From: an uncultured Deferribacteres bacterium
Lineage (GTDB): Bacteria; Zhuqueibacterota; Zhuqueibacteria; Zhuqueibacterales; Geothermadaptataceae
Length of the DNA stretch: 64,000 bases
Assembly (NCBI GenBank): GCA_964014485.1
Contig: CAXHAT010000011.1
Coordinates: 1 to 64,000, forward strand
Direction: 5' to 3'
Of this stretch, positions 1-38,695 are shown in pieces. The translations under genes were made by a program, and so were the position numbers. The notes beneath the pieces are model-generated. The model searched no databases. It saw only the letters and a list, made by a program, of their open reading frames with translations, and had not been told where the DNA came from. The stretch's first letter is position 1, and every line of letters starts with the position of its first letter.

Positions 1-49
1 TACGAAAAACAGCCAATATAAGAAACCGAATCAAATCGATAACGCTCAG

Positions 50-316: not shown

Positions 317-453
317 TTGAATGGTAACTAAATGTATTTTAACACATTAAGGCGCCAGGAATATTTCAATAACCGGACAGTACTGATTTGGGGTATATTC
401 ATTTTCTTTCGAAAATCCGGCCCAAGCGAAATATTCGACCTTACGCTTTTCTT

Positions 454-834: not shown

Positions 835-841
835 TCAAGAC

Positions 842-1111: not shown

Positions 1112-1123
1112 AAGCTCAGTTCA

Positions 1124-1393: not shown

Positions 1394-1488
1394 AGCTTTA
1401 ATATCTGTTTAATTTTAAAAGCTTGCGACAAATTTAACCAATAAATAAAATCAAATTCTCAATTTGAATCAAGTCGCTTGTTCAAGCA

Positions 1489-2903: not shown

Positions 2904-2934
2904 TTTGCAGTTTTAAAACGGGATAAATTAAAAA

Positions 2935-4011: not shown

Positions 4012-4123
4012 GTTATTGGGGCAAAGGCACATAGGCGCAAAGTTTTGCACTCCTCACCAGCAGGTCATGCTTGCTCTGCAAAAGAATTTGGGATTACAGC
4101 AGATGAGCGCGGTTTTGTTGGTG

Positions 4124-4963: not shown

Positions 4964-5057
4964 TTTTTTAGATTTTTTTTGAAATGCAATCGAGTTTTCA
5001 CAGGATTCGTTGGGGCTTAATCCGGCCTACTTTTCCCAAGAGATGTGAATCTTAGAA

Positions 5058-12390: not shown

Positions 12391-13794
12391 TTATTTTGCG
12401 AAGATTTTGATTTGAGAGTTTTGCCAGTTTGATACAGCCTTATCACAATTACCAGCTAAACTGCATTCACAAAAAGCCATCTTAAAAATTAAAGGTTTGT
12501 TATTTGGGTTTGATCTATTCAGATTCAGAATCTTCGATATTTGGGTGATTCGTTGGTTTGTAAGAGATTCTTGTTTATTATCCCGGTCTCTGTTCATATC
12601 CGTGTAAATTATAAAAAGCTTCTTTCCTGATTTTGAAATCTTGTTTATTCGTCGACGATCGTAGTGACCTGGATTTTCGCTATTATACCCAAAAAAAACA
12701 ACCTGCCGCTCTCCCAAGTCTTTGCTTGTTTCGATAACGTATTTTAAAAGTTCAATGGTCACGGGTCGATTTTTTGCTGAGCTTAACGAGCTTCTTATAG
12801 CCTTTGCTAAACAAGCTGGCTCTGGAAAATCAGGCAAATACAATGAAATAAATGTTCGCAGTTGATCGAGAGAGATCTTCTTACCTATGGTAGCATTATC
12901 TATTATTTGCCTTTCAAGCATCAGAATACAATATTCAGCCAAGTGTAAAGCTTGCTGACGAGCATCATCAGGGAGATGTATTTCTTTTAGTAAGTTATTC
13001 TTTGTTATCGTATGCTTTTCCTGCAAATCCTTAGTTAAAAATGCACTTAGATCGTTTACTGAAATGTATTTCGCCTGACTGACACTGCGCAGGTTATCAA
13101 TAAATGCAGGTCTCTTGTCTTTGATCAGTTTCATTGTTCTTTCGATACAAAGATGCCAGGCGTATGTCGTGACGGCGTTTATGTAAACATCATTCAGCGT
13201 TTTATGCCGATCATTTTGCTTATTATGCAAAGCCAAAGCTGTTCTAAATGATGAATCTGCATATTTTAAATTTTGGCGGAATATTTTAGCGTACAGTGGA
13301 TCGACTGGCAAACGGGATGCCCATAAATAGTACAAATCTCCAAGCTTTCTGTAAATTGTCGCCTTATCAAGCCCGGACGATTCATCAATGCTAGGTGAAA
13401 GGGCTTTTTTATAATATTCTTCAGCTCGTTTGTAAAAGCCGCTTCGTCTTAACGCGTCGGCGATGACGACATATTGGGCGACGGTAATCTCTCCAAAAAC
13501 TCCGTACAAATTATCTTCGATGATTTCAAGGGATTCCAAAAGATCAAGCTTCATCATTAGCCCGGAATCTTCGTCACTCTGATTTTGAGCAAGAGCTTTT
13601 ACGGAGCCGACTAATATTTGACGCTGCAAAGAAGTATATTGCACGAGAGTCAGGAAAGCGATGACTGCGCCTATGAATAGAGCTGCGAGAGCGGAGGGTT
13701 CACGGTTCTGTTCTTTTTTATGAAATTGGTACAATAGACGACAAACTAAAACGAATAGGACAAGCAGAGCCAAGACAAACAAATACTTAAACAT
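12391..13794 (-). CDS. AT-rich hypothetical membrane protein: 2 N-terminal TM helices, TPR-like region, possible degenerate OmpA-like C-terminus
   Basis: 467-aa ORF; AEEYYKKAL and ATIYRKLGDLY are TPR-like; C-terminal VFFGYNS..YTD..N..SLTNQRI..NSQIKI. Confidence 0.6.
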   Translation of the reverse strand: MFKYLFVLALLVLFVLVCRLLYQFHKKEQNREPSALAALFIGAVIAFLTLVQYTSLQRQILVGSVKALAQNQSDEDSGLMMKLDLLESLEIIEDNLYGVFGEITVAQYVVIADALRRSGFYKRAEEYYKKALSPSIDESSGLDKATIYRKLGDLYYLWASRLPVDPLYAKIFRQNLKYADSSFRTALALHNKQNDRHKTLNDVYINAVTTYAWHLCIERTMKLIKDKRPAFIDNLRSVSQAKYISVNDLSAFLTKDLQEKHTITKNNLLKEIHLPDDARQQALHLAEYCILMLERQIIDNATIGKKISLDQLRTFISLYLPDFPEPACLAKAIRSSLSSAKNRPVTIELLKYVIETSKDLGERQVVFFGYNSENPGHYDRRRINKISKSGKKLFIIYTDMNRDRDNKQESLTNQRITQISKILNLNRSNPNNKPLIFKMAFCECSLAGNCDKAVSNWQNSQIKIFAK

Positions 13795-14089
13795 CGTACG
13801 AATCCCCGTGGGAAATAACTATAATTCTAAGCACTGCAAAAATTTGACTTTTGGTTATAACACTCGTCGTGAAACGACAAAATCTGATTCGAAAACAATT
13901 CTGCTCTCATGGGTTCAGCATTTGATTTGGAAAAGTGTGCTGCAATGAGGCGGCGTTTCGCTGTTGCCTTCCGATCTGGCTCTAGAAAAACACGTATCTG
14001 GCACTTTATTGAACCCCCTAAAGATCAAACGCCGCTCAGACAGAATGGACTGAGCGGCGTTTAAGTAGATACGAAATTTTCGATTGTGA

Positions 14090-14926
14090 TTATGCAGTCG
14101 TCTCGGCCATCGTATTTTTGATTGCTTCAACGATGCGTTCGTGAGCAACGCCGTTGCTGACCAACATGCCGTCAAGGTTTTTGACTTCTTCTCTGGAATA
14201 ATCCAATTCGCCGCCGTGGACGTCCGTCATAACGCCGCCTGCAGCTTCCAAAATGGCTTGCGGGGCGCAACTGTCCCACATTTTGGTGTAAGGGCTTGGA
14301 TGGATGTAAAGATCGCACTCGGCGCGTGCGATGAGGCCGCACTTCAAACCGACGCTCCCGCTTTTTCGTAAATCTTTGATCCCCAGCGATTTGCGGATAT
14401 CGTCAACGACAGGCTCCATATGCGAGCGGGAGACGACCATTCTGAGCGTGCTAAGCTTGTCGCGTTTCGTCACGGCCAGTTCTTTTGAGTCGCCATTCTG
14501 GACCATGGTTGCACCCAGGCCCTTGGCGCCAAGATAAAGGCGATCTTCAGTCGGCTGGTAAACGCCGCCCAAAACCGGCTTGCCTTTATGCGCCAAGCCA
14601 ATCATGATGGAAAACTCGCCGTTCTGACTGATGAACTCTTTTGTCCCGTCCATCGGATCGATAATCCAGACTAAATCGCGAGAGAAGCGAGTGTTGTTGT
14701 CTTTCGATTCTTCCGAAAGCAGGCCGTCTTCGGGGAAGGCTTTTTCAAGGCAACTGATGATGTATTCGTTGCTTGCATGGTCGGCGGCGGTCACCGGCTC
14801 ATTTTTGTTTTTGTAGTCTACGCTTGAGTTGTCGCCGTAAAAATGCAGAACTTCTAGTCCGGCGCCGCGCAGAATTGGCACGAGACACTCCAGACGCTCT
14901 TTTTTCTCGTTGTTTGTTAAAGCCAT
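14090..14926 (-). CDS. cysQ: 3'(2'),5'-bisphosphate nucleotidase
   Basis: PVTAAD, LSEE, WIIDPMDGTKEF, VVSRSH, GSVGLK, WDSCAPQAILEAAGG. Confidence 0.88.
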   Translation of the reverse strand: MALTNNEKKERLECLVPILRGAGLEVLHFYGDNSSVDYKNKNEPVTAADHASNEYIISCLEKAFPEDGLLSEESKDNNTRFSRDLVWIIDPMDGTKEFISQNGEFSIMIGLAHKGKPVLGGVYQPTEDRLYLGAKGLGATMVQNGDSKELAVTKRDKLSTLRMVVSRSHMEPVVDDIRKSLGIKDLRKSGSVGLKCGLIARAECDLYIHPSPYTKMWDSCAPQAILEAAGGVMTDVHGGELDYSREEVKNLDGMLVSNGVAHERIVEAIKNTMAETTA

Positions 14927-15076
14927 TGAAACCAGCCTTTTTGAGTGACAATTTCCCGGTTAAAATTTTGATTATAAGATGAACATTACCTGAGTCGAAC
15001 GGCTTTTGCGGAGTTTGAACAGGAGCGGCCCCCAAAAGATTTCGTTTTAGCGCGTATGAGCGTCATTCAATCAAAA

Positions 15077-16654
15077 TCATTTCAACGATTTTAGAATTTC
15101 CAGCGCCGCCAAACGCCCCGGCGCACCGGTGATGCCGCCGCCGGGGTGCACCCCCGAACCGCACTGAAAATAATTGCGAATCGGCGTTTTGTACTGCGCC
15201 AAACCATGCGCCGGACGTAAGAAAAAAAGCTGAGAAAGCGTAAGTTCACCCTGGAAAATGTTGCCCTGCGTCAAACCGATTTTTTGCTCGATGTCCCATG
15301 GCGTGACAACCTGTCGGTGCAAAATAATATCTTTCAGATTTGGAATATACTCGGCAAGAGTATTCACCACAACGTCGCCGAAAGCCTCGCGTTTTTCTTC
15401 CCACGTCCCTTCGCGCAGTTTATATGGCGCGTACTGCACAAAACAAGACATGACATGTTTTCCAGGCGGAGCCATGCCGGGATCAATCATCGATGGGATG
15501 ATCACGTCCATGTATGGGCGGCGAGAAAAATCGCCATACTTTGCATCGTCGTACGCGCGTTCAATATAGTCGATGCTCGGACTAATTGATATAGCGCCGG
15601 CAAGATGCGGACCGGGGCCGGGCATGCAGCTTAAATCCGGCAATGCGTCCAACGCCAAATTGACCTTTGCCGAAGAGCCTCGAATATTAAAATTTTCGAT
15701 GGATTGCACCATCTCCTCGGGCAATTGCTTTGGGTCGACCAATTTGAGAAACGTCAGCTTCGGGTCAACGCTTGAAGCGACAACGTCGGCGTAAATTTCA
15801 TCGCCGTTTTGCAGCGCGACGCCAACGGCCTCGCCGTTTTTCACGATCACTTGCTCAACCGGCGCATCCGTTTTGATTTCAACGCCGAATTCTTGCGCCG
15901 CGCCGGCAATCGCGTCCGCAACGCCGCCAGTGCCGCCTTTCTGGAAGCCCCAGGCGCGGAAGACACCGTCGATTTCGCCCATGTAATGATGCAGCAACAC
16001 ATACGCCGTGCCCGGCGATTTTGGCCCGAGATAAGTTCCGATAACGCCGCTGGCCGATAGCGTGGCTTTGAGAACATCGGTTTCAAACCATTCGTCGAGA
16101 AAGTCCGAGGAACTCATGGTCATGAGCTTGACCAGCGTGTAAAAGTGCTCTTCGCGCAATCCCAAAATATGTTTGCCCACGCCTGCCAGACCGCTCAGTT
16201 CTTTCGGCGACATTCTGGTCGGATCGGGCGGTGTAACGCCGAGCATGTACTTGACCGCCTTGGCCATAAAAAACATATCGCGGCCGTACTCGTCGTAGGC
16301 TTCGGCGTCGCGCGGGGAAAATCGTGCAATATTGCGCATTGTGTGGAAGTGATCGCCGTCGCGGTAAAGGCAGTCGCCGTCGGGCAGAGGAGTGAGCGTA
16401 CTTTCCAGCGGCAGAATGGTGAGGCCGTGTTTGGTCAGGTTGAGATCGCGGATGATTTCCGGTCGCAGAATGCTGACAACGTAGGAAAAAACGGAATATT
16501 TAAAACCGGGATAAATTTCTTCGGTGACGGAGGCTCCGCCAACCAAATGACGTTTTTCCAAAACCAGCACGCGCTTTCCCGCCTTGCCTAAGTAAGCCGC
16601 GGCAACCAGTCCGTTATGCCCCCCGCCAATAATAATTGCGTCGTATTTTTTCAT
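15077..16654 (-). CDS. Phytoene dehydrogenase-like FAD-dependent oxidoreductase
   Basis: DAIIIGGGHNGLVAAAYL, VGGASVTEE, GL.GGNIFQGEL-like, GSGVHPGGGITGAPG. Confidence 0.9.
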   Translation of the reverse strand: MKKYDAIIIGGGHNGLVAAAYLGKAGKRVLVLEKRHLVGGASVTEEIYPGFKYSVFSYVVSILRPEIIRDLNLTKHGLTILPLESTLTPLPDGDCLYRDGDHFHTMRNIARFSPRDAEAYDEYGRDMFFMAKAVKYMLGVTPPDPTRMSPKELSGLAGVGKHILGLREEHFYTLVKLMTMSSSDFLDEWFETDVLKATLSASGVIGTYLGPKSPGTAYVLLHHYMGEIDGVFRAWGFQKGGTGGVADAIAGAAQEFGVEIKTDAPVEQVIVKNGEAVGVALQNGDEIYADVVASSVDPKLTFLKLVDPKQLPEEMVQSIENFNIRGSSAKVNLALDALPDLSCMPGPGPHLAGAISISPSIDYIERAYDDAKYGDFSRRPYMDVIIPSMIDPGMAPPGKHVMSCFVQYAPYKLREGTWEEKREAFGDVVVNTLAEYIPNLKDIILHRQVVTPWDIEQKIGLTQGNIFQGELTLSQLFFLRPAHGLAQYKTPIRNYFQCGSGVHPGGGITGAPGRLAALEILKSLK

Positions 16655-21692: not shown

Positions 21693-22319
21693 TTAAGCAA
21701 GCTGTGCATCTATCCCGGCAGTCACTTTTACCAAATTTGTGAAAACGCTCTGATCGTCGTAAACCAAATTAAACACCGGCCTGCCCCATTTCGCGTTTGA
21801 AATGAGATGAATGTCCTTTACGCTCTGCCGCATCTTATCAAAACTCTCCGGTTTGACTTGCACGCCGCACAAAACCATTCTGTCTTGACTCTCGACCGTT
21901 AAATCGACCCGCAATTCTGCGTCAACGTATTCGTCCGCACGTTTAATCATTAAATTTGGGAAAGTTTTCGCCAGCAGCTTCTGCGCCTTAACTTCCATTA
22001 ATTCGCCCTTTAAAGAATTGGTCACGAAAAGGTGATACTCCCAGCGAATGCACTCGTTGAGCGTATATTTTTCTTTTCCCCAAGCTTTAAACTGCGCTTT
22101 ATACAAGTTCCGCCCAAAATCTTCCACCGTGCCTTGACTGATGATTCCGCAATCGCATCGATGAACAAAATGCTCGCGAATCAGCGAATACAACTCATGC
22201 TGACTTTTGGGCTTGTGCGTCCGAATTAACTTCATCACAGGCACGGATTTGTCCGGGGCGGAAACGCCGAATTTGCCGTTAAGCCAATTCAATTCGCCGC
22301 CGGTCAGGTTTTTTTTCAT
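21693..22319 (-). CDS. PD-(D/E)xK nuclease, MjaI restriction endonuclease-like
   Basis: LFVTNSLKGELME..A, D.ELRVDL, GVQVKPESF catalytic arrangement; ATGA overlap with the upstream gene. Confidence 0.6.
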   Translation of the reverse strand: MKKNLTGGELNWLNGKFGVSAPDKSVPVMKLIRTHKPKSQHELYSLIREHFVHRCDCGIISQGTVEDFGRNLYKAQFKAWGKEKYTLNECIRWEYHLFVTNSLKGELMEVKAQKLLAKTFPNLMIKRADEYVDAELRVDLTVESQDRMVLCGVQVKPESFDKMRQSVKDIHLISNAKWGRPVFNLVYDDQSVFTNLVKVTAGIDAQLA

Positions 22320-23788
22320 AATTTCTTTTCGATCCAGCCTTTAAAATCGAGATAATCCAGGGCGGATTTTAGCAGACGCGGATCGCACTTCTCTTTCAGC
22401 GCAAGATCGAGCTTTTTGAATAATTTGGCGTGGTCGCTGCGCGGGGTCATGCTGGCTTTCGAGAAAAATTTGAGCAGCAACATCTCAAAATCTCTCAGGT
22501 CGCGTTTTTTCTTCAAAAATCTGCGGCATGAATCGACGGCGTATTTCAGGATGGTCAAATTGCCCAGCTCGTACTGCACGACGAGGTGCAGCAGTTGCGC
22601 ATAACTCAAAATGTCTTCTCTCACCGTATCCGCGCGCAGAGCGAAAATCTCATTGAGCCGTTCCAGCGAATCCCTGAACGATTTTTTCATAAAATAGAAG
22701 TAGGCGAACTGGTAGTAGAGAATCAGAATATAGTCGACCGGAATTTGACGACGGTATTTTTGAATGTATTGCTCAATTTCATCGATGCGTGCGATTCCTG
22801 CGTCGCAATCTCCGGCGTCGCGGTACATTTCCAATTCCACGTTCCAGGTTTGCAGCAAGAGTTTGACGGCGGTCTTGCTTCCGGCTTTCATGCCGTAAAC
22901 TTCCGGAATCGAACGAATCTTTTCCAATAGCGGAGGAACGCCCTCGAGTTCCTTGAGATGCAAATGCACGCTGATGTAATTGTTCAAAGCCGTGATGTAA
23001 GATTTCGGATTCTCGCGAATGCGCTCAGGGCGAGATTCGATGAGCCGGATGAGTTGATCGACGCTGCGCTTCGCGCCTTCGTAGTCGCTGTGAAAAAAAT
23101 AGTAGCTGTTCCAGATGTAGCGGTAGAGAATTTTCGCCTGCAACGACAGCGCGGAATCGATGCTTTGCAAATCCGGGTGTTCGAAAATACCCAACGGCGC
23201 ATTCTCGCTTTTACTGGCGGCTTGCCAGAGATCGAACATGTTGATAGTCAGCGCCCAATAGTTGTTTAAATTGGAAAGTTTGGCGACGGCTTTCTTTTCT
23301 TGATCAATAATTTCGGCCAGGCCTTCGCGGCCCGCCCCTGCACTCGTCGTCGCTAAAAGGAGCTGCCTTTTCCACGCCAGAATCGCCAGCATCTCGGGGA
23401 ACGCTTCATAGGCGCAGGCCAATTTTTCCGCTTTTTCGATGGCGTAACGACACTGGTCAAACAGTTCTTTCATGAATAAAATTTCAATATCCCGGAGTAA
23501 ATCTTTCAACTCCGCATCCTTCGAAAACTGGCTGTGGAAATTCCTTAGACTTTTAAGAATGAGTTTGGAAAGATAGTTTTTCGTGACGTGCAGTTGGTTG
23601 GCAAACGCTTCATTGGCAAACTTTTTTTTGACTTTTTGCTCGTCGAAACACTCCTGCCGATCAATGAAATCAAACAGTTGCAGGTAGTTTTTGTTATTTC
23701 CTGACATCGTCGCGAACAGGCGAAAGTAGCGCTTTTCCGCCTTGGTCAAGGATTTTATCAGCAAAAACAGGTTGTTTTTTTTGGCCAT
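22316..23788 (-). CDS. Conserved all-helical (TPR-like) hypothetical protein of the Bacteroidota LF.LIKSL.K.EKRYF family
   Basis: LFLLIKSLTKAEKRYFRL, Y..LFD.I, K.YL..LILKSLR.F, YLDF..WIE. Confidence 0.75.
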   Translation of the reverse strand: MAKKNNLFLLIKSLTKAEKRYFRLFATMSGNNKNYLQLFDFIDRQECFDEQKVKKKFANEAFANQLHVTKNYLSKLILKSLRNFHSQFSKDAELKDLLRDIEILFMKELFDQCRYAIEKAEKLACAYEAFPEMLAILAWKRQLLLATTSAGAGREGLAEIIDQEKKAVAKLSNLNNYWALTINMFDLWQAASKSENAPLGIFEHPDLQSIDSALSLQAKILYRYIWNSYYFFHSDYEGAKRSVDQLIRLIESRPERIRENPKSYITALNNYISVHLHLKELEGVPPLLEKIRSIPEVYGMKAGSKTAVKLLLQTWNVELEMYRDAGDCDAGIARIDEIEQYIQKYRRQIPVDYILILYYQFAYFYFMKKSFRDSLERLNEIFALRADTVREDILSYAQLLHLVVQYELGNLTILKYAVDSCRRFLKKKRDLRDFEMLLLKFFSKASMTPRSDHAKLFKKLDLALKEKCDPRLLKSALDYLDFKGWIEKKL

Positions 23789-26458: not shown

Positions 26459-27739
26459 ATGATTAAAATGACTTACCCGAGAACCGCTGAAGGCTTTTTC
26501 GCAAATTGCAGAAGGATGATTTTGCCACTCTGTGTCCTTCTAATGTTTGGCGCAGCTGAAGCCTGGGCTCAGAAAATTGTCGAGTTGGGAGATCAGTCGG
26601 CCAATTGTGAACAGGATCCGGATTGCATCAACAGGATTCATCCGGCAATTCCAATGGCCGCCCGCGCAAAACCGGGCGACACGATTGTATTCCATACTCG
26701 CAACGCCAGTGACTTTGACCTTGATCCTGAAGCGCCGCCGGATCCGCGGAGAGGCGATCCTGGAATTGGCAATGTACACCCGCTCACCGGCCCGGTCTAT
26801 ATCGAGGGCGCTGAACCGGGCGACGTGCTGAAGGTTCGCATCCTCGACATTGCTCCCGGACCCTGGGCGTTTACCGTGATTTCGCCAATCGGTTTTCTCT
26901 CTGATCAAATTCAGGGGCCATTGCGCGTCCTCTGGAAACTAAACCGTGATTACGCGGTTTCCGATGATCTTCCGGGCGTACGCATTCCCAATCGAAGTTT
27001 TCCCGGCGTGGTGACCGTTTTGCCGGGGCCGGAGCAGCATGCCAAGATGCTTGCCAGAGAAGCCGAGCTCTCAAAAGCGGGCGGCGCCGTTATGCCCGCG
27101 ACTCACTTGACACATGCTTCTCCAAAAGAAATCTGCGGAGAAGGCGGCAGTCATGCAGGCGAGTGTCTCCGCACGATTCCGCCGCGCGAGCATGGCGGCA
27201 ACATGGATATCAGGTATTTGCAAACCGGCGTTTCAATCTATTTGCCGTGTTACATTGAAGGCGGCGGCCTTGCCCTAGGAGATTTGCATTATGCGCAAGG
27301 AGACGGGGAAGTCAGCGGCACGGCGCTCGAAATGGACGCCATTGTCACAGTGACGGTCGAGTTGATCAAAGACGGTCCAAAATTAGATCGCGGGCCTCAC
27401 TATGAAGGCTCTTCCGCCCTGTTGGATATTCCGTCCCGCAGGTTCTACGCGACGACGGGCTTTCCTATAAAAGAAAAGGGAGAAGTGCCGCCTGACATGA
27501 AATACCTCGCGTCAGAGAAAATAGCCGGGCTGGAGAATTTATCCAAAGACATATCTTTAGCCGCTCGGAACGCCTTGACGGAAATGATTGACTACATTTC
27601 GAAAACCTTCGGCTACACGAGACAACAGGCGTACCTGATTGCTTCAGTCGCCGTTGACTTAAGAATCGGGCAACTTGTAGATGCGCCCAACGTGGGCGTT
27701 ACAGCGGTTTTGCCGCTTGACATTTTCGAGCAGCGTTAA
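26459..27739 (+). CDS. Acetamidase/formamidase family protein with probable signal peptide
   Basis: HPLTGPVYIEGAEPGDVL, RTIPPREHGGNMDI, GDLH.AQGDGEVSG.A.EM, GY..QQAY.I.S, VDAPN. Confidence 0.92.
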   Translation: MIKMTYPRTAEGFFANCRRMILPLCVLLMFGAAEAWAQKIVELGDQSANCEQDPDCINRIHPAIPMAARAKPGDTIVFHTRNASDFDLDPEAPPDPRRGDPGIGNVHPLTGPVYIEGAEPGDVLKVRILDIAPGPWAFTVISPIGFLSDQIQGPLRVLWKLNRDYAVSDDLPGVRIPNRSFPGVVTVLPGPEQHAKMLAREAELSKAGGAVMPATHLTHASPKEICGEGGSHAGECLRTIPPREHGGNMDIRYLQTGVSIYLPCYIEGGGLALGDLHYAQGDGEVSGTALEMDAIVTVTVELIKDGPKLDRGPHYEGSSALLDIPSRRFYATTGFPIKEKGEVPPDMKYLASEKIAGLENLSKDISLAARNALTEMIDYISKTFGYTRQQAYLIASVAVDLRIGQLVDAPNVGVTAVLPLDIFEQR

Positions 27740-27974: not shown

Positions 27975-28775
27975 TCAAGTATAAATGGCTTCGGTTATAT
28001 GAACTAGAGAAGGCTTGCATTCGCCTATTCCGACGGCGTCATAGGTAACGCTGTTACCAACCGGAGATCGATCCGTCTTCGCCTGTACTCTGAACCATTG
28101 TCCACATGGAATATCGATCGTCCAATGTCCCCCCACGGGCAAGACGATTCCGGCATATTCAGTAAAAGCCTGCCAGTTAAAAGAAATGAAAAGATATCTG
28201 GGGCCATCACTTCGATTGAATAGAGTGAATCGAGTTCCTTTGCCGGCCGGAGTATACCTTGGACGTTTTGGAATCTCGGGATAAATTTCCACAAGTGGTT
28301 TCCAATTAGCGGGCCGCAAAGCGTAGAATTGATGAATCGGCGAAGTATAGCCCCAACATCTCAGCGATTCAGCAGGTATTTCTTCATCAGCTAGAGTGAC
28401 CCAATCCCTGCTTGCGCGATGCCACCAGCGCGTCACAGGCATCGTGCCACTCTCTCTTCTTCTTGAAGCGTAGAATTGAAAAGTTTTCTGCTCATACCCC
28501 CATGCACGCATCTTATAATCCGGGATTTCTCCTCCTGCCAATGAAATCCAATCCTTATCTCGGGGGTGAAACCAACGATGGACGGGATTTGGACGCCAAA
28601 GTTCTCCAGGAGTGAGCCATGCATCAAACTGATGGATTTTCTTGGAGTAACCGAGGCGAAAAAGTTGTTCGTCGGGCAACTCATTTTCTGCCAGAGTCCA
28701 CCAATCTCCTTTTATGGGATTCCACCAACGATAAACTTTTACTCTTTTTTGAGCATTAACGCTATTAAAATTCAT
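27975..28775 (-). CDS. Protein with three ~50-aa Trp-rich repeats (DUF5648/beta-trefoil-like) and a C-terminal beta domain
   Basis: Repeat V.RW(W/F).P...DW.(T/S)LA..E.P...(L/M)..(L/W)GY.....QF.A occurs three times; AAGGAG RBS. Confidence 0.7.
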   Translation of the reverse strand: MNFNSVNAQKRVKVYRWWNPIKGDWWTLAENELPDEQLFRLGYSKKIHQFDAWLTPGELWRPNPVHRWFHPRDKDWISLAGGEIPDYKMRAWGYEQKTFQFYASRRRESGTMPVTRWWHRASRDWVTLADEEIPAESLRCWGYTSPIHQFYALRPANWKPLVEIYPEIPKRPRYTPAGKGTRFTLFNRSDGPRYLFISFNWQAFTEYAGIVLPVGGHWTIDIPCGQWFRVQAKTDRSPVGNSVTYDAVGIGECKPSLVHITEAIYT

Positions 28776-28851
28776 TTTATACTCCTTATAAATGCAAGAC
28801 GATAACTTTTAAAGAGTGAGATTCGGTAATTGAATATTATTTTCCGCTATG

Positions 28852-29130
28852 CCGTCTCATTGAAATCCCCCGGGGCCGCTCTTAAAAAACTTGCGAAAAG
28901 CTTCAAATTTCGCCAAGTTGAGACGGTCTTGATTTAGGAGGGCATTCCCGAATCAAGCATTATGAGGGCCCGTTTGTCTGACTGATGGGCTTTTGTTAAC
29001 CATGCTCTATCTGTTGCCACAGGTAGAGCATCTTTTTATTGCCAAAGCCAGGTTGCAACAAAAAGAGCGTTACTAAGGGCCGCGCATTAAAATCACCTCC
29101 TTTAAATCAGTGAATGACATGAAAACGCTC
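28852..29130. ncRNA. Candidate structured RNA / leader with abutting hairpins
   Basis: Stems 28852-59/28919-26 (inner 28889-98/28908-18), 28928-57, 28968-90, 29002-31, 29031-66, 29065-71/29124-30; no long ORF. Confidence 0.45.
29073..29087 (-). other. Minigene MRGP-TAG-TAA with a 12-nt Shine-Dalgarno
   Basis: AAAGGAGGTGAT (29103-29092)-TTTA-ATG CGC GGC CCT TAG TAA. Confidence 0.4.
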
Positions 29131-29136
29131 GTTTGA

Positions 29137-29373
29137 CTAAGTGAAGAGCAGTTCCACGACAATTTTGATGACTGCCGTACCGCTGAGTAATAGAACTGCG
29201 TGCATCAATTTGTTCTGTACCGCCTGTTTCGCCTCGAGCCTCGCCAGTTTACTCTTCAAGCCTTCAGCGCCGTTGCCAAAGACTGAATCCTGCAGAACCT
29301 TGGATTCAGTCTTCGCTTCATTTAGAAGGCGTTCAAGAACCGCTACTCTGGCTTCTATTGGGAGTCTGCTCAT
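29137..29373 (-). CDS. 78-aa coiled-coil protein with C-terminal TM (phage-type small membrane protein, holin/XhlA-like layout)
   Basis: GGAGA RBS before ATG 29373; EARVAVLE, VFGNGAEGLKSKLARLE, hydrophobic C-terminal segment. Confidence 0.65.
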   Translation of the reverse strand: MSRLPIEARVAVLERLLNEAKTESKVLQDSVFGNGAEGLKSKLARLEAKQAVQNKLMHAVLLLSGTAVIKIVVELLFT

Positions 29374-29579
29374 TTTTTCTGTCTCCAATCAAAGTTGCTT
29401 GCTGTGCAAGCACCAATGTGATTTCGTTTTTTTACTAAAGCGCGATACGCGCTTTAATAATAGAACCCGGCTATCGCAAAATCTGGGTGATTTTTTTCGG
29501 ATTGTAGCAAACCAAGTTTTCTTCGGTCCGCGAGTCAGTGATAAACGGCGGGTCGATATAGTTTAAAGCGAAGGTTCTT

Positions 29580-30218
29580 ATGATAACTAACGAAGCGCAG
29601 AAGGAGCTTATCAAATCAATTCAACGGGGTGACCAGGCAGCCGAAAACAAGCTAATAAGGTACTACCTGCGCGTTCTAAATAGATTTTATCCCGACTATC
29701 CGGACTTGGTGCAAGATGTCCTATTCTATTTTATCCGGAGAGTTAGATCAGGCGAGTTCAAGATTGGGGAGCATTATCCATGGGGATACGTACGGAAAGC
29801 CCTTTTATCGAAGATAGCGACTTACCATAAACGCTCAAAAAAAAGCCACGTGGAAATAGATAAGGTTGGAGTAGAAACAACACTTGCATCTAGCGTAGAA
29901 GCGCCCGAAACTCCCTTGCATAAACTGTTGCGCAAGGAGCACGAACGCCTAACGCAGCGTGTAGATCAAGAGCTTTCAGACGCCATCGAGCGCTTAAAAG
30001 ATCCACATAAACAGATAATGCGCTGGACGTTATATGATGGGAAAAAGCCTTTTGAGATTCGGGAAAAGTTGGATTTGCCTAAAGATGAGGAGCAGACAGT
30101 CTACGAACTCAAAAGACGCGCTCTAAATCTTCTCGAAGATGATGTTGTGCTTCAACGTTTATACTCAGAAATTACGAAACACGAAATTGACTTAAATGAG
30201 TTGATCCATGAAAGCTAA
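29580..30218 (+). CDS. ECF-type (sigma70 group 4) sigma factor
   Basis: Region 2: LIKSIQRGDQAAENKLIRYY..DLVQDV..YVRK; region 4: LSDAIERLKDPHKQIM..YDGK..EI.EKL..TVYELKRRALNLL. Confidence 0.82.
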   Translation: MITNEAQKELIKSIQRGDQAAENKLIRYYLRVLNRFYPDYPDLVQDVLFYFIRRVRSGEFKIGEHYPWGYVRKALLSKIATYHKRSKKSHVEIDKVGVETTLASSVEAPETPLHKLLRKEHERLTQRVDQELSDAIERLKDPHKQIMRWTLYDGKKPFEIREKLDLPKDEEQTVYELKRRALNLLEDDVVLQRLYSEITKHEIDLNELIHES

Positions 30219-30906
30219 ATCTAAGGCCGATAAGGAGTTCGATGCCACCATCGACAGATATTTGGACGGACTTCTTTCTTCTGAAGAAGCTGAAAATTTT
30301 GAACTTCTATGTATGCAAGAAGAAGCTCTTTTTCAGCGCTTCGAGCAAAGAAAAAGATTTCGACATGATGTGGCTCGGGTCATCAAAGAAAAGGGCGATG
30401 AGATTTTCCCCAAGCAAACCCCGGAAGAGGCGGAACGAGATCGAGAAATCGTCCGAGCAGCTATTCTCGGGCAAGAACATACACCCAATGTTGAAGCTAA
30501 AGACCGGGATTTAGAGTGGAAAGATCGTCTGGCAGTGATGTTCAAGCAAATTTCCGCCGATTTCAACCGCGCGTTTCCGAATCCCGCCTCGCTTGCGCTG
30601 GCCAAAAGCGAAGGCGGCGCTTTTGAAGTCAAAACAATTCAAAGCGACGACAAGAGTTTGAGTTTGCATGTCACGTCGGCGGTATTTGCTGATGATGCGC
30701 TCAAACTTTTGTTTAGCATAAAGAAAGGCGATCCAACGCCATTCACCGGCAGTCTTTGCATTTACAAGACTGCCAATGGAAAACGGGATCTCATCGAAAA
30801 AGTCCGTTTGGAAGACGACCCTGATTTTTTATCCGCTGGTATTGCAAAAGAAATTATCATCAAAAAAGATGAACTCGGCGAGTTTGAGTTTGAATTGTGC
30901 GATTGA
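30208..30906 (+). CDS. Putative soluble anti-sigma factor
   Basis: N-terminal IDRYLDGLLSSEEAENFE..L helical anti-sigma-type motif; 11-nt overlap with the sigma gene; no TM; C-terminal beta-rich domain. Confidence 0.7.
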   Translation: MKAKSKADKEFDATIDRYLDGLLSSEEAENFELLCMQEEALFQRFEQRKRFRHDVARVIKEKGDEIFPKQTPEEAERDREIVRAAILGQEHTPNVEAKDRDLEWKDRLAVMFKQISADFNRAFPNPASLALAKSEGGAFEVKTIQSDDKSLSLHVTSAVFADDALKLLFSIKKGDPTPFTGSLCIYKTANGKRDLIEKVRLEDDPDFLSAGIAKEIIIKKDELGEFEFELCD

Positions 30907-30912
30907 ACCGTT

Positions 30913-33900
30913 TTGACTGAGAATAAATTTAATACCCTTTCCGACTTTTTCTTTCCTGCCGCCAAGGCTCCTGCAACCGCTGCTCTCAAATGGCATGAGG
31001 TAGAAGTGTATCTATACGCCCGCTTGCAGACCTCGCCGCCGCCTGAAGCGCTCAAAGCCTTCTTGCTTGATCTTGAAGAGAATTGGCGACCTTTTATTGA
31101 AAGCCGCACTGAGAAGCAAGAGCAATTGACTATCGCTCAACGGTTGACATGGTGTGCTCTTCACAGCCGAGAATTCAAAACGCGTGCGGCATTCGACGTT
31201 TCGAGCGACAAACCGGATTTTATCTGCAAGGATGAGGAAGATAGTTGGCGCTTCATTCTAGCCTTCCGCTCGGGGGAAAAGCTCCAAATACCATTTGCGT
31301 GCGTGGTCGATACCGACGGCGCGATCTGCCATTTTGAGTTGAAATTGTGTCGGGGCGGTACGGGAAACGTGTATCATCATCCAGACAATCCGTTCAGAAT
31401 AACATCCTGCGAAAAAGACAACCTTATTGAAGATAATTTTATTGACGCCGTTGAGACGGCTTGGCGCGCGGCAAGACGACATGTTGATAACTGCAACGTC
31501 GACGGATGTTGGCGCATTATCGATCCGCCTGCCAAGCCTTTGGGCGGCCCATCCGCCGGAGGCGCGGCGGCTCTTGGCTGGCTTCACTTATTACGAGGAA
31601 CCAAGCCCGATACGCGTGTGATCGTCATCGCGGCGATTGATACAGGCGGCAAGTTGCAAAAAGTTGGAGGCGTGGAGGCTAAAACGCGTGCGGTGGCTGC
31701 GGCCAATGCGCGGAACAAAGACTCCGTTCATTCTTTTTTTGACAAAATTATTGTTGCGGCCCCGGAAAACCGGGACGCTGCTGTGAAGGATGAGGCGATT
31801 GTTCCAGAAATCGTGGGTTCACTCGCCGACTGCGCCGATGTCCGCTCACAGGCGGCGACGGACTTGATCCACTACTTGAACAAGTTGATCGAAGACTTGG
31901 ACGCAGTTCAAGGACGGAACCCAGCAAGGAGGAGTCGAGATATTGCAATCGATACTTCAGTCTACACACGCAAAATTGAAGCTAAAGATGAAACGTTCGA
32001 CCCAAACGATCCTAGAAGAAGGCAACATCGTTCCGTTCTTGAAGAGATGGAGTACCAAAAATATGAACTGCCAATTGAGCGTGAGCGCCGACTGAAAGAA
32101 CCGTGGTCCGATGTGTTCGAGCGCGCTCGAGAACCGCTTGTACTCAAAGGGGCCCCCGGTTCCGGCAAGACCTTCCTTTCGCGGCAGTCGGTTTTGAAAA
32201 TTGCGCTACAAGCTCGAGGCGCTTTGGCTGCTGGCGCCGGGCTCAAAGATGTCGGTTTACTGCCGATCTGGATTACAGCAAACGAACTGATACAATCTGC
32301 ATCCGTTCCTGATTGTATTCTTGAATCTATACGATGCAATAAAGTCAAGGGCAAATTGTCTCAAGCGTTTTTGCAGTGGTTCGAAGAATCCAGAATTTGC
32401 ATCGTCATAGATGCGCTGGATGAGATTTCGGAAACCAAAAGCGTCTTGAGGGAAAAGCTGCGGGCACTCAATGCATGGATTGGTAAGGGACGTTTGATGA
32501 TGACATGCCGAACGATGGATTGGCTTAAATTCCAAGATAATCTTGGTTCGATGATGCTTACCGAGGTCGAGCTGGCGACGCTTGACGATGACGAAAAACA
32601 GCAGCTTGTCCGTAAGTTTTTCGCCAGAGACTCAGAAAAGTGCGAACGCATGCTCAACCTGCTCGATGATAACAGGTCACTCGATTATGCCTGCGAGTCG
32701 CCGCTTTTGCTGAACTTCGCATGCTCGCTATGCGACGACCCTGACACGAAAATCGACAAGAACACAACTAGCGTCGGGCTTTACATTAAGATAATGGATC
32801 ACATTTTTTCAGGAAAGTGGCGGAATGTTGAGCCTTTCTGGGGAGATGAAGACGAGGACATCAGAGATTGGCAGAACAAGTTGCACTGCATCGCTTGGCC
32901 AATGTTTTCTAACACTCAGGAAGCAAAATACAATGAAAACGATAATGACGCAAAGTGGCGCGAAAAAAATCGATTTTCAAATATCGAGTGGAAGGCCGCT
33001 TGTAAACAAGCTGGAATCAACGATAGGAACAATCGCTTCTTCAAAGAACTGAAAAAGGTCGGCGTCTTGGTTTCCTCTGGCCGACGAGATAACCAGGACA
33101 AAGACCCATGTACGAGTTTTTTGCACCGTACGCTGTTCGAGTATAGCGCGGCTCGCGGCTTGGCGCTGGATAAAAACAATTATCGCACATGGATTGCTGA
33201 AAAGGCGAAAAAACGACCAGGAGAGCCGGGTGGCGTATTTTGGTTCGCCCCTGAATGGTGGGAAATGTTGACGTTTCTATCTGGCATAGAAAATATCGAC
33301 GTACAGCTTTTGCTCGATGCTGTTGATCAAAATTGCGACGATGTTTTCCACTCAATGCTTTACCTTAAGGCAAAATTCGTAGGCGCAGCCGACGGCACAA
33401 ACCATCTGAGTGGAAGTACCTTACCAATAATCTGTAGCGTAATTCAAATGGTGGTCGTTCAAGATAGTACCATCTCGACTTTACATAGATCGGTTATCCG
33501 TTCTATAATCAACCAGTTATCACTCACCCACCAGGTGAAAGAACAGCTTGGTATAACGCTATTAGACAGTCTTAACCCGCAAAGCGGTCCTGTTTTAAAT
33601 GACTTCATTTGTAAAATGTTGGGAGACATCAGAAGCGAACGGACTGTCAATCCTCTCATCCAAATCATGAGGCTTTATTCAAAGTCAATCGCCAAACTAA
33701 AAAGAGGCGAGCATGCTTATTTGGCTGATTTTGCATCTCAAGCGCTAGTCAGAATTAGAAGCGAAGGCGCAGTTTATGGTATCCTACAGTCCCTGAAAGG
33801 GACAGAACATTGGAGTTTGCAAATTTATGCTGCTTCGGCACTAGGTAGGATGGTAGGTTTCATAAAGTATGCTGCGGGAAAGGACAACATCAAGAAAGTT

Positions 33901-34920
33901 CCAGACCTTCTTAAAACTATGAGGGAAACAGAATATGCAGAGTTAGCTCAAATCGTTGCCGAAAAGCTTGGCGATATGAGAAGCGCACGCGCTGTGTCAG
34001 TGTGTTTACAGGCCCTACGACAAAATGAAGATTTGTCTTTACGTTCTGCCGTCTACTGGGCGTTAGATTGGATTTCTTGGGCGCTGACTGCTTCCAAAAG
34101 TGAACACCCCGATCCTAAAGCCTTTCGGCGACCAGATGAGCCCCAAATCGTCACAGAGGTCCCGGATAACATCAGAATCGAACAAACCGTTTTCGAACTT
34201 CTTAAGACTATCCGGGAAGCAAAAAATTGGGATTTGCGCGAACGCGCCGTTGAAGCCCTTATCGAATCTTCAAGGGAAGCTGTAAGTGATGAAGTGTTCG
34301 ATGAGATTGCCGGAGCTCTGGGGAGTATTAAAAGTGAGCACACTATTAAAGCTCTTGTCAACGCCTTGCGAGATACGCACAAAGATGTGCGCTGGGTTGC
34401 TGCCGAGGCTCTGGGAATTATTAAAAGCGAACGCACAGTTGATGCCCTTATCACTGCTTTACGGGATATTGACGAAGATGTGCGTTCGTCCGCCGCCTCT
34501 GCGCTGGGCAAGATTAATACCGAACATGCAATTAATGCCCTTGTCACAGCCTTATGGGATCCAGATGAGGATATACGTTTGACTGCTGTTAGAGGTCTGG
34601 GCGATGCCAATTGCGAACGCGCCGTGGATGCCCTTGTCGAAGTCTTAGTGGATGAAAATAGGGACATCCGTGCTAATGCCGCCTCATCACTAGGCAGACT
34701 TAAGAGCGAACGTACGGTTGATGCCCTCATAACTACCTTGTCGGATATTGATGTAGGCGTGCGTTTGTCCTCCGTTGATGCTCTGGGCAAGATCAAAAGC
34801 AAACGCACTATTGAGGCTCTTGTCGAACTCTTCCGAGATGAAGACCATGGCGTGAGAACGCATGCTGCCGATGCGCTATGGAATATTTCATGGGAACATA
34901 AAGTCCCAATCTTTAAATAA
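30913..34920 (+). CDS. Lon (S16) protease domain - NACHT NTPase - HEAT-repeat fusion protein (NLR-like STAND)
   Basis: GGPSAGG (S214) and VGGVEAK (K257); Walker A GAPGSGKT (413-420), Walker B IVIDALDE (497-504), TCR, SPLLL, FLHRTLFEYSAA; 31-aa PBS-lyase HEAT repeats at the C-terminus; TTG start 6 nt after the upstream stop. Confidence 0.88.
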   Translation: MTENKFNTLSDFFFPAAKAPATAALKWHEVEVYLYARLQTSPPPEALKAFLLDLEENWRPFIESRTEKQEQLTIAQRLTWCALHSREFKTRAAFDVSSDKPDFICKDEEDSWRFILAFRSGEKLQIPFACVVDTDGAICHFELKLCRGGTGNVYHHPDNPFRITSCEKDNLIEDNFIDAVETAWRAARRHVDNCNVDGCWRIIDPPAKPLGGPSAGGAAALGWLHLLRGTKPDTRVIVIAAIDTGGKLQKVGGVEAKTRAVAAANARNKDSVHSFFDKIIVAAPENRDAAVKDEAIVPEIVGSLADCADVRSQAATDLIHYLNKLIEDLDAVQGRNPARRSRDIAIDTSVYTRKIEAKDETFDPNDPRRRQHRSVLEEMEYQKYELPIERERRLKEPWSDVFERAREPLVLKGAPGSGKTFLSRQSVLKIALQARGALAAGAGLKDVGLLPIWITANELIQSASVPDCILESIRCNKVKGKLSQAFLQWFEESRICIVIDALDEISETKSVLREKLRALNAWIGKGRLMMTCRTMDWLKFQDNLGSMMLTEVELATLDDDEKQQLVRKFFARDSEKCERMLNLLDDNRSLDYACESPLLLNFACSLCDDPDTKIDKNTTSVGLYIKIMDHIFSGKWRNVEPFWGDEDEDIRDWQNKLHCIAWPMFSNTQEAKYNENDNDAKWREKNRFSNIEWKAACKQAGINDRNNRFFKELKKVGVLVSSGRRDNQDKDPCTSFLHRTLFEYSAARGLALDKNNYRTWIAEKAKKRPGEPGGVFWFAPEWWEMLTFLSGIENIDVQLLLDAVDQNCDDVFHSMLYLKAKFVGAADGTNHLSGSTLPIICSVIQMVVVQDSTISTLHRSVIRSIINQLSLTHQVKEQLGITLLDSLNPQSGPVLNDFICKMLGDIRSERTVNPLIQIMRLYSKSIAKLKRGEHAYLADFASQALVRIRSEGAVYGILQSLKGTEHWSLQIYAASALGRMVGFIKYAAGKDNIKKVPDLLKTMRETEYAELAQIVAEKLGDMRSARAVSVCLQALRQNEDLSLRSAVYWALDWISWALTASKSEHPDPKAFRRPDEPQIVTEVPDNIRIEQTVFELLKTIREAKNWDLRERAVEALIESSREAVSDEVFDEIAGALGSIKSEHTIKALVNALRDTHKDVRWVAAEALGIIKSERTVDALITALRDIDEDVRSSAASALGKINTEHAINALVTALWDPDEDIRLTAVRGLGDANCERAVDALVEVLVDENRDIRANAASSLGRLKSERTVDALITTLSDIDVGVRLSSVDALGKIKSKRTIEALVELFRDEDHGVRTHAADALWNISWEHKVPIFK

Positions 34921-35077
34921 AGTGCTAAAAAACTCGATGTCTTTCACAAACATAACAATGAAGTCAGTTGGCTATTGATGGTGAGAGTGAATGGTTTTCA
35001 CCCCTATTTTACTATTGATAAAATCTGTTATCAGTACCAAACTAACACCCTTTTGATCATAATTGCAGTGGGGAATT

Positions 35078-37291
<2,214 letters not shown>

Positions 37292-37579: not shown

Positions 37580-38695
37580 TTAATTTTGCACCAGTTCAAA
37601 CGCGCCAAGCGGCTTGGTAACGCCGTTTAAAACAACCTCGACCTGGTGCGTTCCGGGATAATGTTTTCGCGTCGTCAATTGAGCCAGTGAAATCGACTTT
37701 TGAATCTTGACGCTTTCTCCCTGTGCGAGTTCAGCGGTCTTCAGCTTAAAGACCTTGGGACTGGTTTTGCCGTTGGCTTTGATAAAATGCACGCGACAGT
37801 CGATGAGCAGGCGGCGTTTTTTTGCGTCATCATTTTTCACTTCAAAACTCAGGACAACCGATTGCCCGATGGCAGGTTTTGCAGGCGAAAGCGAAACCTC
37901 ATTGAAAGAAATATTATCGGCGCCCTCATAGCCCAAAATGGCGAGCGCTCCGGGATCGGCGCGCTTAATCGCCGAACGCAGCGCGTGCCGGACAAGCCAT
38001 TCTCGATTTTCTGAAGCGTCTTTCATCCACCCGCGCGCTGTCTCCACAAGAATCTTGGGATGGTCTTTGCCGATGTCGTTCAAATTGTTCGCCACCGAGC
38101 GGCGCACGTAAAGCTCAGGATCATCCTTCAACAATTCGAGCAATTCCAGCACAGGGGCCGGGTCTTTTTGAAAACGGCGCAGACGCGGCGCCCAGGGCAA
38201 AAGCGGGCGCGTCCCTTCGGAGACGAGGCGGCGAACGTGGAGGTTGGGATCGTGCGTCCATTCTCGGAGACGCTCCAACGTCTTCTCCGGATAGCGATCC
38301 AGAAATGCGCGAATGCTGAATTCCGCGGTGAATCTTTGCGTCAACTCGTACTGCGCCCGCATCGACGCTTCGAAATGTTCCAGCCCGAATTCGGCGACAA
38401 AAAACACGTGCGGCATGTAGAGAAACGGCGCCATTCCATTGCCTTCAAGGCTTTTGATTCTGGGGCCAAGCGAAGCGAGCAATATTTCAATCGCGGCTTC
38501 GTAATCTTCCGGCAAGTATTTGCGCAGCGTCCTGGCTATTTTCCAGCCGCGCGGGGTGAGCTCGAGTTCATCGTAGCCGTCAAGTGCGTCGCGGACAAAG
38601 CCGTCAGCATCGAAGTCCGGCATGACCGATGAAATCATGCCCGCAATCTTTTTTGGAATCTCAGGGCCGAAATAATTCTTTAGCGGTTCCGCCAT
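37580..38695 (-). CDS. DNA alkylation repair protein (AlkC-like HEAT-repeat glycosylase with C-terminal Ig-like domain)
   Basis: LTQRFTAEFSIR.F, HVRRLVSEGTRP.LPW, YVRRSVANNLNDIGKDHP, KVFKL, TTRKHYPG.H. Confidence 0.9.
   Translation of the reverse strand: MAEPLKNYFGPEIPKKIAGMISSVMPDFDADGFVRDALDGYDELELTPRGWKIARTLRKYLPEDYEAAIEILLASLGPRIKSLEGNGMAPFLYMPHVFFVAEFGLEHFEASMRAQYELTQRFTAEFSIRAFLDRYPEKTLERLREWTHDPNLHVRRLVSEGTRPLLPWAPRLRRFQKDPAPVLELLELLKDDPELYVRRSVANNLNDIGKDHPKILVETARGWMKDASENREWLVRHALRSAIKRADPGALAILGYEGADNISFNEVSLSPAKPAIGQSVVLSFEVKNDDAKKRRLLIDCRVHFIKANGKTSPKVFKLKTAELAQGESVKIQKSISLAQLTTRKHYPGTHQVEVVLNGVTKPLGAFELVQN

Follow-up and report, generated by a model that had tools for sequence, protein, structure and literature searches.

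A Lon-like protease domain on a NACHT-HEAT protein, encoded with a candidate sigma/anti-sigma pair in a marine bacterium

Organisation of the locus

Here we analyse a gene cluster in a 64,000-nucleotide (nt) stretch of DNA (hereafter, the window) from a marine bacterium, an uncultured member of the Zhuqueibacterota (assembly GCA_964014485.1, contig CAXHAT010000011.1). Three plus-strand genes encode a divergent sigma factor of the extracytoplasmic function (ECF) type (P0001), a soluble anti-sigma-like protein (P0002) and a fusion of a Lon-like protease domain with a NACHT NTPase and HEAT repeats (P0003), which together may form a transcriptional switch gated by proteolysis (Table 1). The open reading frame (ORF) coordinates bear out the tight coupling of the three genes noted in a preliminary description of the sequence, with an 11-nt overlap between the first two and a 6-nt gap before the third.

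Table 1. Features of the locus and its flanks, in window coordinates.
Feature	Position	Strand	Basis
P0001, 212-aa divergent sigma-70 family (ECF-like) sigma	29580..30218	+	TIGR02937, RpoE, Atlas likeness
P0002, 232-aa soluble anti-sigma-like protein	30208..30906	+	complex model with P0001
P0003, 1335-aa Lon-like protease/NACHT/HEAT fusion	30913..34920	+	Pfam, structure model
P0003 residues 1-120, N-terminal helical domain conserved in the family	30913..31272	+	model helices; family alignment
P0003 residues ~121-328, Lon-type (S16) proteolytic domain, Ser214-Lys257 dyad	31273..31896	+	Foldseek, VIA, PDB profile, invariant dyad
P0003 residues 408-572, NACHT NTPase	32134..32628	+	Pfam NACHT 32.0 bits (cut-off 26.7), Walker motifs
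P0003 residues ~930-1330, HEAT repeats, putative sensor	33700..34902	+	HEAT_2, HEAT_PBS
Intergenic region between divergent 83-aa ORF and sigma gene	29389..29579	.	putative promoter(s), from sequence
Weak terminator-like hairpin, 60 nt past the P0003 stop	34980..35002	+	1 site vs 0.8 expected in shuffles
83-aa ORF (78 aa from first ATG), hydrophobic C-terminus	29137..29388	-	
361-nt spacer between the two minus-strand genes, four inverted repeats	28776..29136		
266-aa three-repeat protein	27975..28775	-	DUF5648 28.6 bits (cut-off 25)
Formamidase (flank)	26459..27739		
Pyrroloquinoline quinone (PQQ)-dependent dehydrogenase (flank)	35078..37291	-	

P0003 joins a Lon-type protease to NACHT and HEAT modules

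Pfam gave no match in the N-terminus of P0003, with Lon_C falling short of significance, and single-sequence searches returned faint Lon signals (LonB, E 0.043; 8dvh, E 0.049). An AlphaFold model of this region, built on a 45-sequence alignment (predicted local distance difference test score, pLDDT, 85.2; predicted template modelling score 0.82), was matched by Foldseek to Lon catalytic domains (E 2e-8, template modelling (TM) score by target 0.7-0.77). Comparison of the model with the catalytic domain of E. coli Lon (1rr9_A) using VIA aligned 168 residues with a Z-score of 18.2 and a root-mean-square deviation of 2.4 Å. A profile made from the same alignment gave six matches in the PDB, all of them Lon proteolytic domains (best E 0.0017). 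Three columns of the alignment are invariant, F176, S214 and K257. The latter two correspond to the catalytic Ser and Lys regions of Lon; of 161 family members with a domain match, 148 have a domain spanning at least 150 model positions, and every one of these retains both residues.

The preliminary description had likened this protease to CalpL, the Lon-SAVED protease of type III CRISPR (clustered regularly interspaced short palindromic repeats) systems. CalpL (7qda_A) came 17th in the VIA ranking, with 141 residues aligned at Z 10.6 compared to Z 15-18 for canonical Lon, showing that P0003 belongs to the Lon superfamily without being specially close to CalpL; the Lon-type Ser-Lys domain of that proposal therefore stands and the detailed CalpL likeness does not.

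Ahead of the protease lies a helical domain (model helices at residues 20-39, 44-62, 66-84 and 108-118) in which Pfam finds no AAA+ match, the sole NTPase of the protein being the downstream NACHT domain. Because residues 1-31 align with the N-termini of relatives, we favour the TTG start at 30913 over the shorter database start (P0006, residue 32). Walker A (GAPGSGKT, with K419) and Walker B (IVIDALDE, around D500-E504) can be read from the sequence of the NACHT domain, and the C-terminal part matches HEAT_2 in six stretches (E 4.7e-68) and HEAT_PBS (E 3.5e-25). The Lon fold, the NACHT match and the HEAT matches together bear out the tripartite fusion first described. A SAVED domain was absent from the Pfam scan at E≤0.1, which returned NACHT and HEAT families, and the NCBIfam models of the anti-phage NACHT proteins EruA and HyoA gave no match to P0003 at the same threshold.

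A modelled interface between the sigma and anti-sigma candidates

P0001 is weakly sigma-like by hidden Markov model (HMM) searches, matching TIGR02937 with E 7.9e-8 and 32.1 bits, below the cut-off of 42.9, and RpoE (PDB 1or7) with E 0.011. In the ESM Atlas its neighbours at 0.97 belong to sigma-70 clusters, and a single structural row reaches the bar for Sigma70_r2. The ECF sigma named in the preliminary description is retained as a divergent, ECF-like candidate. Pfam gave no match and no word-indexed homologue was found. A profile made for P0001 matched sigma factors in the PDB, which is not independent evidence for P0001 because the profile is driven by the bona fide sigma factor of a related locus (L003, see below).

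P0002 shows no long hydrophobic stretch by eye, has no family match and no PDB sequence match, and has no word-indexed homologue beyond itself among 549 candidates. Its AlphaFold2 model (pLDDT 61.8) opens with helices (residues 6-122) and closes with a beta domain (strands within 143-231), joined by a low-confidence linker whose pLDDT drops under 50 at residues 89-97 and 109-141. A profile of P0002 against the PDB produced serpin noise and was discarded. In the ESM Atlas all its matches lie below 0.9, with a zf-HC2 cluster (15% of members) at rank 10 and a row for the anti-sigma domain RskA_C at TM 0.29, under the bar.

Modelling of the P0001:P0002 complex scored 0.79 in each of three runs, compared to 0.00 for the best of three controls. 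Of 157 solved complexes 116 attained this mark, as did 2 of 215 mismatched pairs, counts that apply here only roughly since the model rests on a custom alignment. At least 79% of contacts are common to the runs, the partner pLDDT is at least 66, and the modelled interface pairs P0002 residues 12-87 with P0001 residues 32-72 and 128-199, docking the N-terminal helices of P0002 between the two domains of the sigma candidate. This arrangement resembles solved ECF sigma/anti-sigma pairs. The sigma:anti-sigma modelling suggested at the outset thus passed its controls, and the description of P0002 as an anti-sigma-like protein lacking a transmembrane segment agrees with both its sequence and the docked helices.

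A rare family of Lon-like domains with swapped sensors

Proteins that share this Lon-like domain make up a rare family that has no name. Searched exhaustively by HMMER with residues 1-400 of P0003, a set of 1.84 billion representative sequences yielded 208 matches at E≤1e-3, of which 62 reach E≤1e-10; the ten members looked up are all singleton clusters, named 'HEAT repeat protein' or 'hypothetical'. In a scan of 30 long members at E≤1e-5, 18 carried an NTPase match (NACHT, AAA_16, AAA_22 or NPHP3_N), and the repeat or sensor matches comprised 17 HEAT, 4 TPR, 1 beta-propeller (WD40) and 1 FGE-sulfatase, with 2 members lacking a match. Pfam Lon_C was reached by just one of the 30 (P0151, 31.8 bits).

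The majority of listed members are 200-500 aa in length. True stand-alone Lon-like genes are found at L003 (369 aa), L004 (504 aa), L018 (285 aa), L021 (474 aa), L023 (323 aa) and L025 (314 aa), and some other short members are probably fragments, for example P0133 beside P0059. In a FastTree phylogeny of the 148 domains, long and short forms are interleaved, the starred branches forcing at least 12 label changes, and P0003 pairs with P0008 (SH-like support 88).

The distribution of the family is patchy. Among 61 relatives it occurs in the genome of the window only, which is also its single carrier among 167 genomes of the phylum, and it was found in 5 of 401 sampled Planctomycetota and 2 of 401 Chloroflexota genomes. 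The planctomycete count follows the removal of one genome (G272), whose candidate was dropped as a canonical HerA-type ATPase with a Pfam Lon_C match (L020, E 4.5e-32). Four of the planctomycete carriers come from one order, represented by nine genomes. Searches of plasmids, phages and viral contigs gave no family matches.

Anti-sigma-like genes recur upstream of the Lon-like gene

Upstream DNA is readable over at least 1.2 kb at ten loci, including that of the window, and these could be assessed (Table 2); at L017 and L024 the sequence breaks off ahead of the Lon-like gene, and at L023 only the end of the upstream gene remains. A search with a tightened family alignment gave at least two related loci, and a metagenome scan gave three. 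In eight of the ten assessable loci the gene immediately preceding the Lon-like gene is anti-sigma-like, and six have a recognisable sigma-like gene, a count that leaves out the 536-aa ORF of L025 as a very weak candidate (TIGR02937 E 0.03). Such upstream anti-sigma-like genes span three phyla as well as metagenome contigs.

Table 2. Gene order at the ten assessable loci (lengths in aa).
Locus	Genes
Window	sigma-like 212; 232; Lon-NACHT-HEAT
L003 (Anaerolineae metagenome-assembled genome, MAG)	sigma-70 (Pfam r2, r3, r4); 215; Lon 369; contig end
L004 (Planctomycetota MAG)	317 (zf-HC2 E 3.2e-3); Lon 504; divergent, 3-5175: ORF with two sigma region-4 matches, then NACHT-FGE-sulfatase gene
L016	229 (TIGR02937 8e-4); 212; 166; 168 (HxxxCxxC); Lon-NACHT-HEAT 1498
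L018	255; 229; Lon 285; separate NACHT-HEAT 1398
L019	267; 219; 354 (RsrA E 1.3e-3); Lon-NACHT-HEAT 1527; overlapping GmrSD
L021	297 (Sig70 5.3e-4); 226; Lon 474; TPR-CHAT 872
L025	536; 579 (zf-HC2 25.9 bits over 22.2 cut-off, plus HEAT); Lon 314
L022	Lon-NACHT-HEAT, without co-directional upstream gene
L013	MFS fragment upstream

A jackhmmer search begun with the 215-aa protein of L003 and run on all 1299 stop-to-stop frames from the loci picked up the genes preceding the Lon-like gene at L004, L018, L021, L023 and L025 and no other frame, defining one anti-sigma family with L023 as a partial member. The zinc motif HxxxCxxC is intact in L003, L004, L016, L018 and L025, and HMM matches to anti-sigma models include ChrR at L003 (E 3.6e-4) in addition to the zf-HC2 matches of L004 and L025. 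The sigma genes themselves range from strong (L003) through a region 4 match (L004) to weak (L016 and L021). Pairwise BLAST of P0002 against the partner proteins of L025 was not significant, and P0002 resembles the anti-sigma family of the other loci in layout only (helix pair, linker and C-terminal beta domain).

Fused and split forms both occur. At L018, and likewise at L024, a separate NACHT-HEAT gene follows the Lon-like gene, and L004 has the appearance of the same parts split up and rearranged. The coexistence of the two forms supports a physical partnership of the protease and the STAND protein (STAND, signal transduction ATPases with numerous domains), and an anti-sigma-like gene upstream in eight of ten loci, stand-alone Lon-like loci included, is the pattern expected of a protease-substrate pair. 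As far as the anti-sigma-like gene is concerned, the linkage considered in the preliminary description is found at these eight loci and missing from L022 and L013.

Several related loci carry further genes. At L019 a GmrSD-type restriction endonuclease gene (13577-15454) shares 14 nt with the stop end of the Lon-NACHT-HEAT gene, an overlap suggestive of a single operon and of a role in defence. At L021 (5934-9998) the stand-alone Lon-like gene is directly followed by a TPR-CHAT caspase-like protease gene, a pair that could act as a two-protease relay. Genes of the ThiF family (E1-like) adjoin the Lon-like locus in both Chloroflexota genomes (L003, 2573-4174; L022, 9729-11018). At L025 the product of the gene directly upstream of the stand-alone Lon-like gene (2344-4083) fuses an anti-sigma zinc finger to HEAT repeats and the C-terminal domain of the family, which, judging from sequence, would place the repeat 'sensor' on the presumed substrate.

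Genomic context and the divergent side

The block sits between unrelated metabolic genes, as first described, with a formamidase on one side and a PQQ-dependent dehydrogenase on the other. Its GC content is 44-46% over much of its length, compared to 55-57% in the two flanking genes. In a synteny test for insertion, the flanking formamidase had no match in 30 relatives at E≤1e-30. The intergenic region upstream of the sigma gene holds a 19-nt inverted repeat (29426-29466) and presumably the putative promoter(s) of this gene and of the divergent ORF, and the hairpin past the P0003 stop is not significant on its own.

On the divergent side, the small hydrophobic ORF, the inverted repeats and the three-repeat protein noted earlier are all present. 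The spacer that contains the repeats shows only a modest gain in folding over shuffled sequences (z -1.59 for the minus strand, z -2.46 for the plus strand) and has nothing at or over the Rfam gathering score. On its plus strand, a T run follows a terminator-like hairpin (29002-29031) that has no gene of that strand ahead of it, an element that could be a small RNA; its minus strand shows a strong AAGGAGGTGA Shine-Dalgarno followed by a 4-codon mini-ORF near 29105-29075. The proposal that these genes form the output of the system is not supported: neither protein (P0004, P0005) has a relative in the 12 related loci searched. The divergent unit is thus an adjacent, low-GC element without a tie to the switch, and since it shares the low GC of the block, co-acquisition is possible.

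In the genome as a whole, six NACHT ORFs pass the Pfam cut-off, each of about 900-1340 aa (L026-L031; contigs C74, C289, C1, C194, C11 and C109), amounting to a sizeable repertoire of proteins resembling NOD-like receptors (NLRs). The window also contains two co-directional minus-strand ORFs without a Pfam match (21693-23788; 208 and 490 aa, 4-nt overlap). A 371-aa protein that matches DNA_alkylation and HEAT-like models is encoded two genes further downstream of the locus (37580-38695) and is probably unrelated to it.

We found no sign of a CRISPR or cyclic oligoadenylate input, in agreement with the preliminary description. In addition to the lack of SAVED in P0003, no Cas10 (Csm1, Cmr2) passed the cut-off in the 97%-complete genome, where an absence is not proven because the assembly is in 465 contigs; the best Csm1 and Cmr2 matches, located on other contigs, stopped at 30.7 and 38.6 bits, and the controls were detected in known type III genomes. 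The window holds no tandem repeats. A search of the genome for SAVED gave no match but carries no information, since its control gave no signal anywhere.

A candidate protease-gated sigma switch and its alternatives

Our preferred reading, to which we give a probability of roughly 55%, is that the three-gene set works as a protease-gated sigma switch that senses through an NLR-like STAND ATPase. At rest, P0002 would hold P0001 through its N-terminal helices, as in the modelled complex. Binding of a ligand to the C-terminal HEAT repeats of P0003 would lead to nucleotide-dependent oligomerisation of the NACHT domain, in keeping with the established behaviour of STAND and NLR proteins, and oligomerisation may bring the Ser214-Lys257 Lon-type domains into an active arrangement, by analogy with filament-activated CalpL; in that analogy, NACHT oligomerisation would stand in for SAVED filament formation. 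The protease is predicted to cut P0002, most plausibly in the low-confidence linker around residues 89-141, and the freed P0001 would bind RNA polymerase and switch on its regulon. By analogy, the system is most likely a NACHT-HEAT version of the sigma switch that the CalpL protease controls in type III CRISPR. Of the circuit originally proposed, the protease fold, the dyad, the modelled interface, the recurrent linkage and the lack of CRISPR input hold up, and the divergent output is not supported.

A number of observations weigh against this switch. P0001 lies below every curated sigma cut-off (Pfam, TIGR02937). Homology of P0002 to the anti-sigma family of the other loci could not be demonstrated, P0002 being neither recruited by jackhmmer nor matched by hhalign (probability 1.2%), and at the aligned zinc-motif site it reads F-x3-C-x2-E, without the H and the second C of HxxxCxxC. 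Since sigma/anti-sigma complexes have already been solved, the score of the complex model may reflect likeness to known pairs and is not proof of binding. Among the ten assessable loci, L022 and L013 have neither a sigma nor an anti-sigma gene upstream, and the eight of ten overstates independence because a single planctomycete order, through four genomes, supplies L013, L016, L017, L018, L019 and L021. No known defence gene adjoins the locus in the window, and PADLOC models match mainly its HEAT repeats, plus weakly mad8 (E 0.0037) over the NTPase region. Cleavage, binding and activation in the switch are predictions.

One alternative, which we regard as improbable though worth retaining, is a different wiring in which the sigma/anti-sigma pair merely regulates the NLR-like gene and the protease cuts other targets, for instance a latent toxin or proteins of the host or an invader, in the manner of protease effectors from other STAND and caspase-type conflict systems. 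A recent preprint (bioRxiv 10.1101/2025.11.14.688446) describes protease modules that set latent effectors free as widespread, the TPR-CHAT gene after the Lon-like gene of L021 and the overlapping GmrSD gene of L019 hint at further downstream components, and L022 and L013 do without the pair altogether. However, the anti-sigma-like gene recurs directly upstream even of stand-alone Lon-like genes, as expected of a protease and its substrate, and the gene order and logic mirror those of CalpL and CalpT.

A second alternative, about as unlikely, keeps the mechanism of the proteolytic switch and assigns it to an endogenous or environmental cue rather than to immunity, making it an ordinary regulatory circuit, comparable to STAND switches such as MalT and AfsR and ending in a proteolytic output. 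The position between metabolic genes, the absence of mobile-element or defence genes beside the locus, the PADLOC matches and the lack of family matches in plasmids, phages and viral contigs are consistent with such a role, whereas the very patchy distribution in three phyla, the GC content below that of the flanks, the swapping of sensor domains among relatives and the GmrSD, CHAT or NACHT-FGE neighbours at some loci are typical of conflict systems, without being decisive.

That the Lon-like domain is a scaffold or oligomerisation module rather than a working protease, as in BrxL, RadA and ComM, whose Lon-like domains are structural neighbours at Z 14-16 and among which BrxL lacks the dyad in the available text of PMC12839542, is very improbable given a Ser-Lys pair that is invariant in every domain counted and aligned with the catalytic regions of Lon.

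Building on the protease-gated sigma switch, we tentatively suggest a wider reading, for which the odds are somewhat against: a bacterial NLR with a signalling, non-killing protease effector that drives a sigma-dependent immune programme, as one branch of a large, so far unrecognised superfamily of Lon/anti-sigma/sigma systems with exchangeable sensors (SAVED, STAND NTPases, membrane receptors and TPR). If this were true, it would amount to an inflammasome-like proteolytic relay with transcriptional output.

If the switch itself operates as proposed, protease-gated sigma release (CalpL-CalpT-CalpS, Craspase-Csx30) would be a portable output module that is also used by NLR-like sensors and not a CRISPR speciality, and bacterial NLRs would gain a non-lethal transcriptional output. 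It would also offer a compact, testable model of oligomerisation-activated proteolysis, made up of three proteins and three point mutants, for which the fused and split forms with swapped sensors (HEAT, TPR, WD40 and FGE) constitute a natural set for studying communication between sensor and protease.

Comparison with known systems

No description of a Lon-type protease on a NACHT or STAND protein linked to a sigma/anti-sigma pair was found in the main texts of open-access papers and preprints, nor was any paper there that mentions CalpT together with NACHT, in line with the earlier view that this is not a recognised named system. Such a combination is likewise not described in the accessible parts of PMC8195603, PMC7159879 and PMC12839542, and the whole words 'Lon' and 'sigma' are absent from the text of Kaur et al. 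2020 (PMC7159879).

The nearest parallel is CalpL-CalpT-CalpS. As described in the accessible text of a preprint (bioRxiv 10.1101/2024.05.08.593097), cyclic tetra-adenylate (cA4) induces CalpL filaments, filament formation activates the Lon domain, and CalpL then cuts CalpT within the CalpT-CalpS pair, exposing a degron that leads to release of CalpS and its binding to RNA polymerase. Both systems are tripartite: an ECF-like sigma and a soluble anti-sigma are encoded together with a Lon-type Ser-Lys protease that lacks an ATPase module of its own and carries a fused sensor, and in both the protease is expected to be activated after sensor-driven oligomerisation, which for P0003 would hold by analogy with CalpL. 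The differences lie in the sensor, which here is NACHT plus HEAT and not the cA4-binding SAVED, in the genome of the window, which has no Cas10 over the cut-off, and in the protease domain itself, which is nearer to canonical Lon than to CalpL, is N-terminal and is preceded by a family-specific helical domain. Compared to CalpT, P0002 has a model of limited confidence and no sequence similarity to any solved chain.

Craspase (gRAMP/Cas7-11 with the TPR-CHAT protein Csx29), Csx30 and CASP-sigma follow a related logic, in which Craspase cuts Csx30 and thereby releases CASP-sigma (same preprint, accessible text). A sensor-activated protease that cuts a sigma-bound inhibitor to yield a transcriptional output would, by analogy, be common to both, but Craspase uses a caspase-like CHAT protease activated by an RNA-guided target, in contrast to the Lon-type domain on an NLR-like ATPase found here. 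The related locus L021, in turn, places a TPR-CHAT gene right after its Lon-like gene.

With bNACHT and Avs/STAND NTPases, P0003 shares the order of N-terminal effector, central NACHT with both Walker motifs and C-terminal repeat sensor, and in both groups the effector and sensor modules vary across relatives. Characterised bNACHT and Avs members act mostly via nucleases or other killing domains, whereas the effector here is a Lon-type protease accompanied by a sigma/anti-sigma pair, a gene content that would imply a transcriptional output. Canonical Lon proteases (MEROPS S16; LonA, LonB, LonC) have the same proteolytic fold and Ser-Lys dyad, but P0003 has no AAA+ unfoldase module ahead of the protease and stays below significance for Pfam Lon_C. 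Finally, compared to pairs of ECF sigma factors and zinc-binding anti-sigma (ZAS) proteins, P0002 lacks the HxxxCxxC zinc motif, and P0001 falls under the curated sigma thresholds, with one Atlas structural row reaching the bar for Sigma70_r2.

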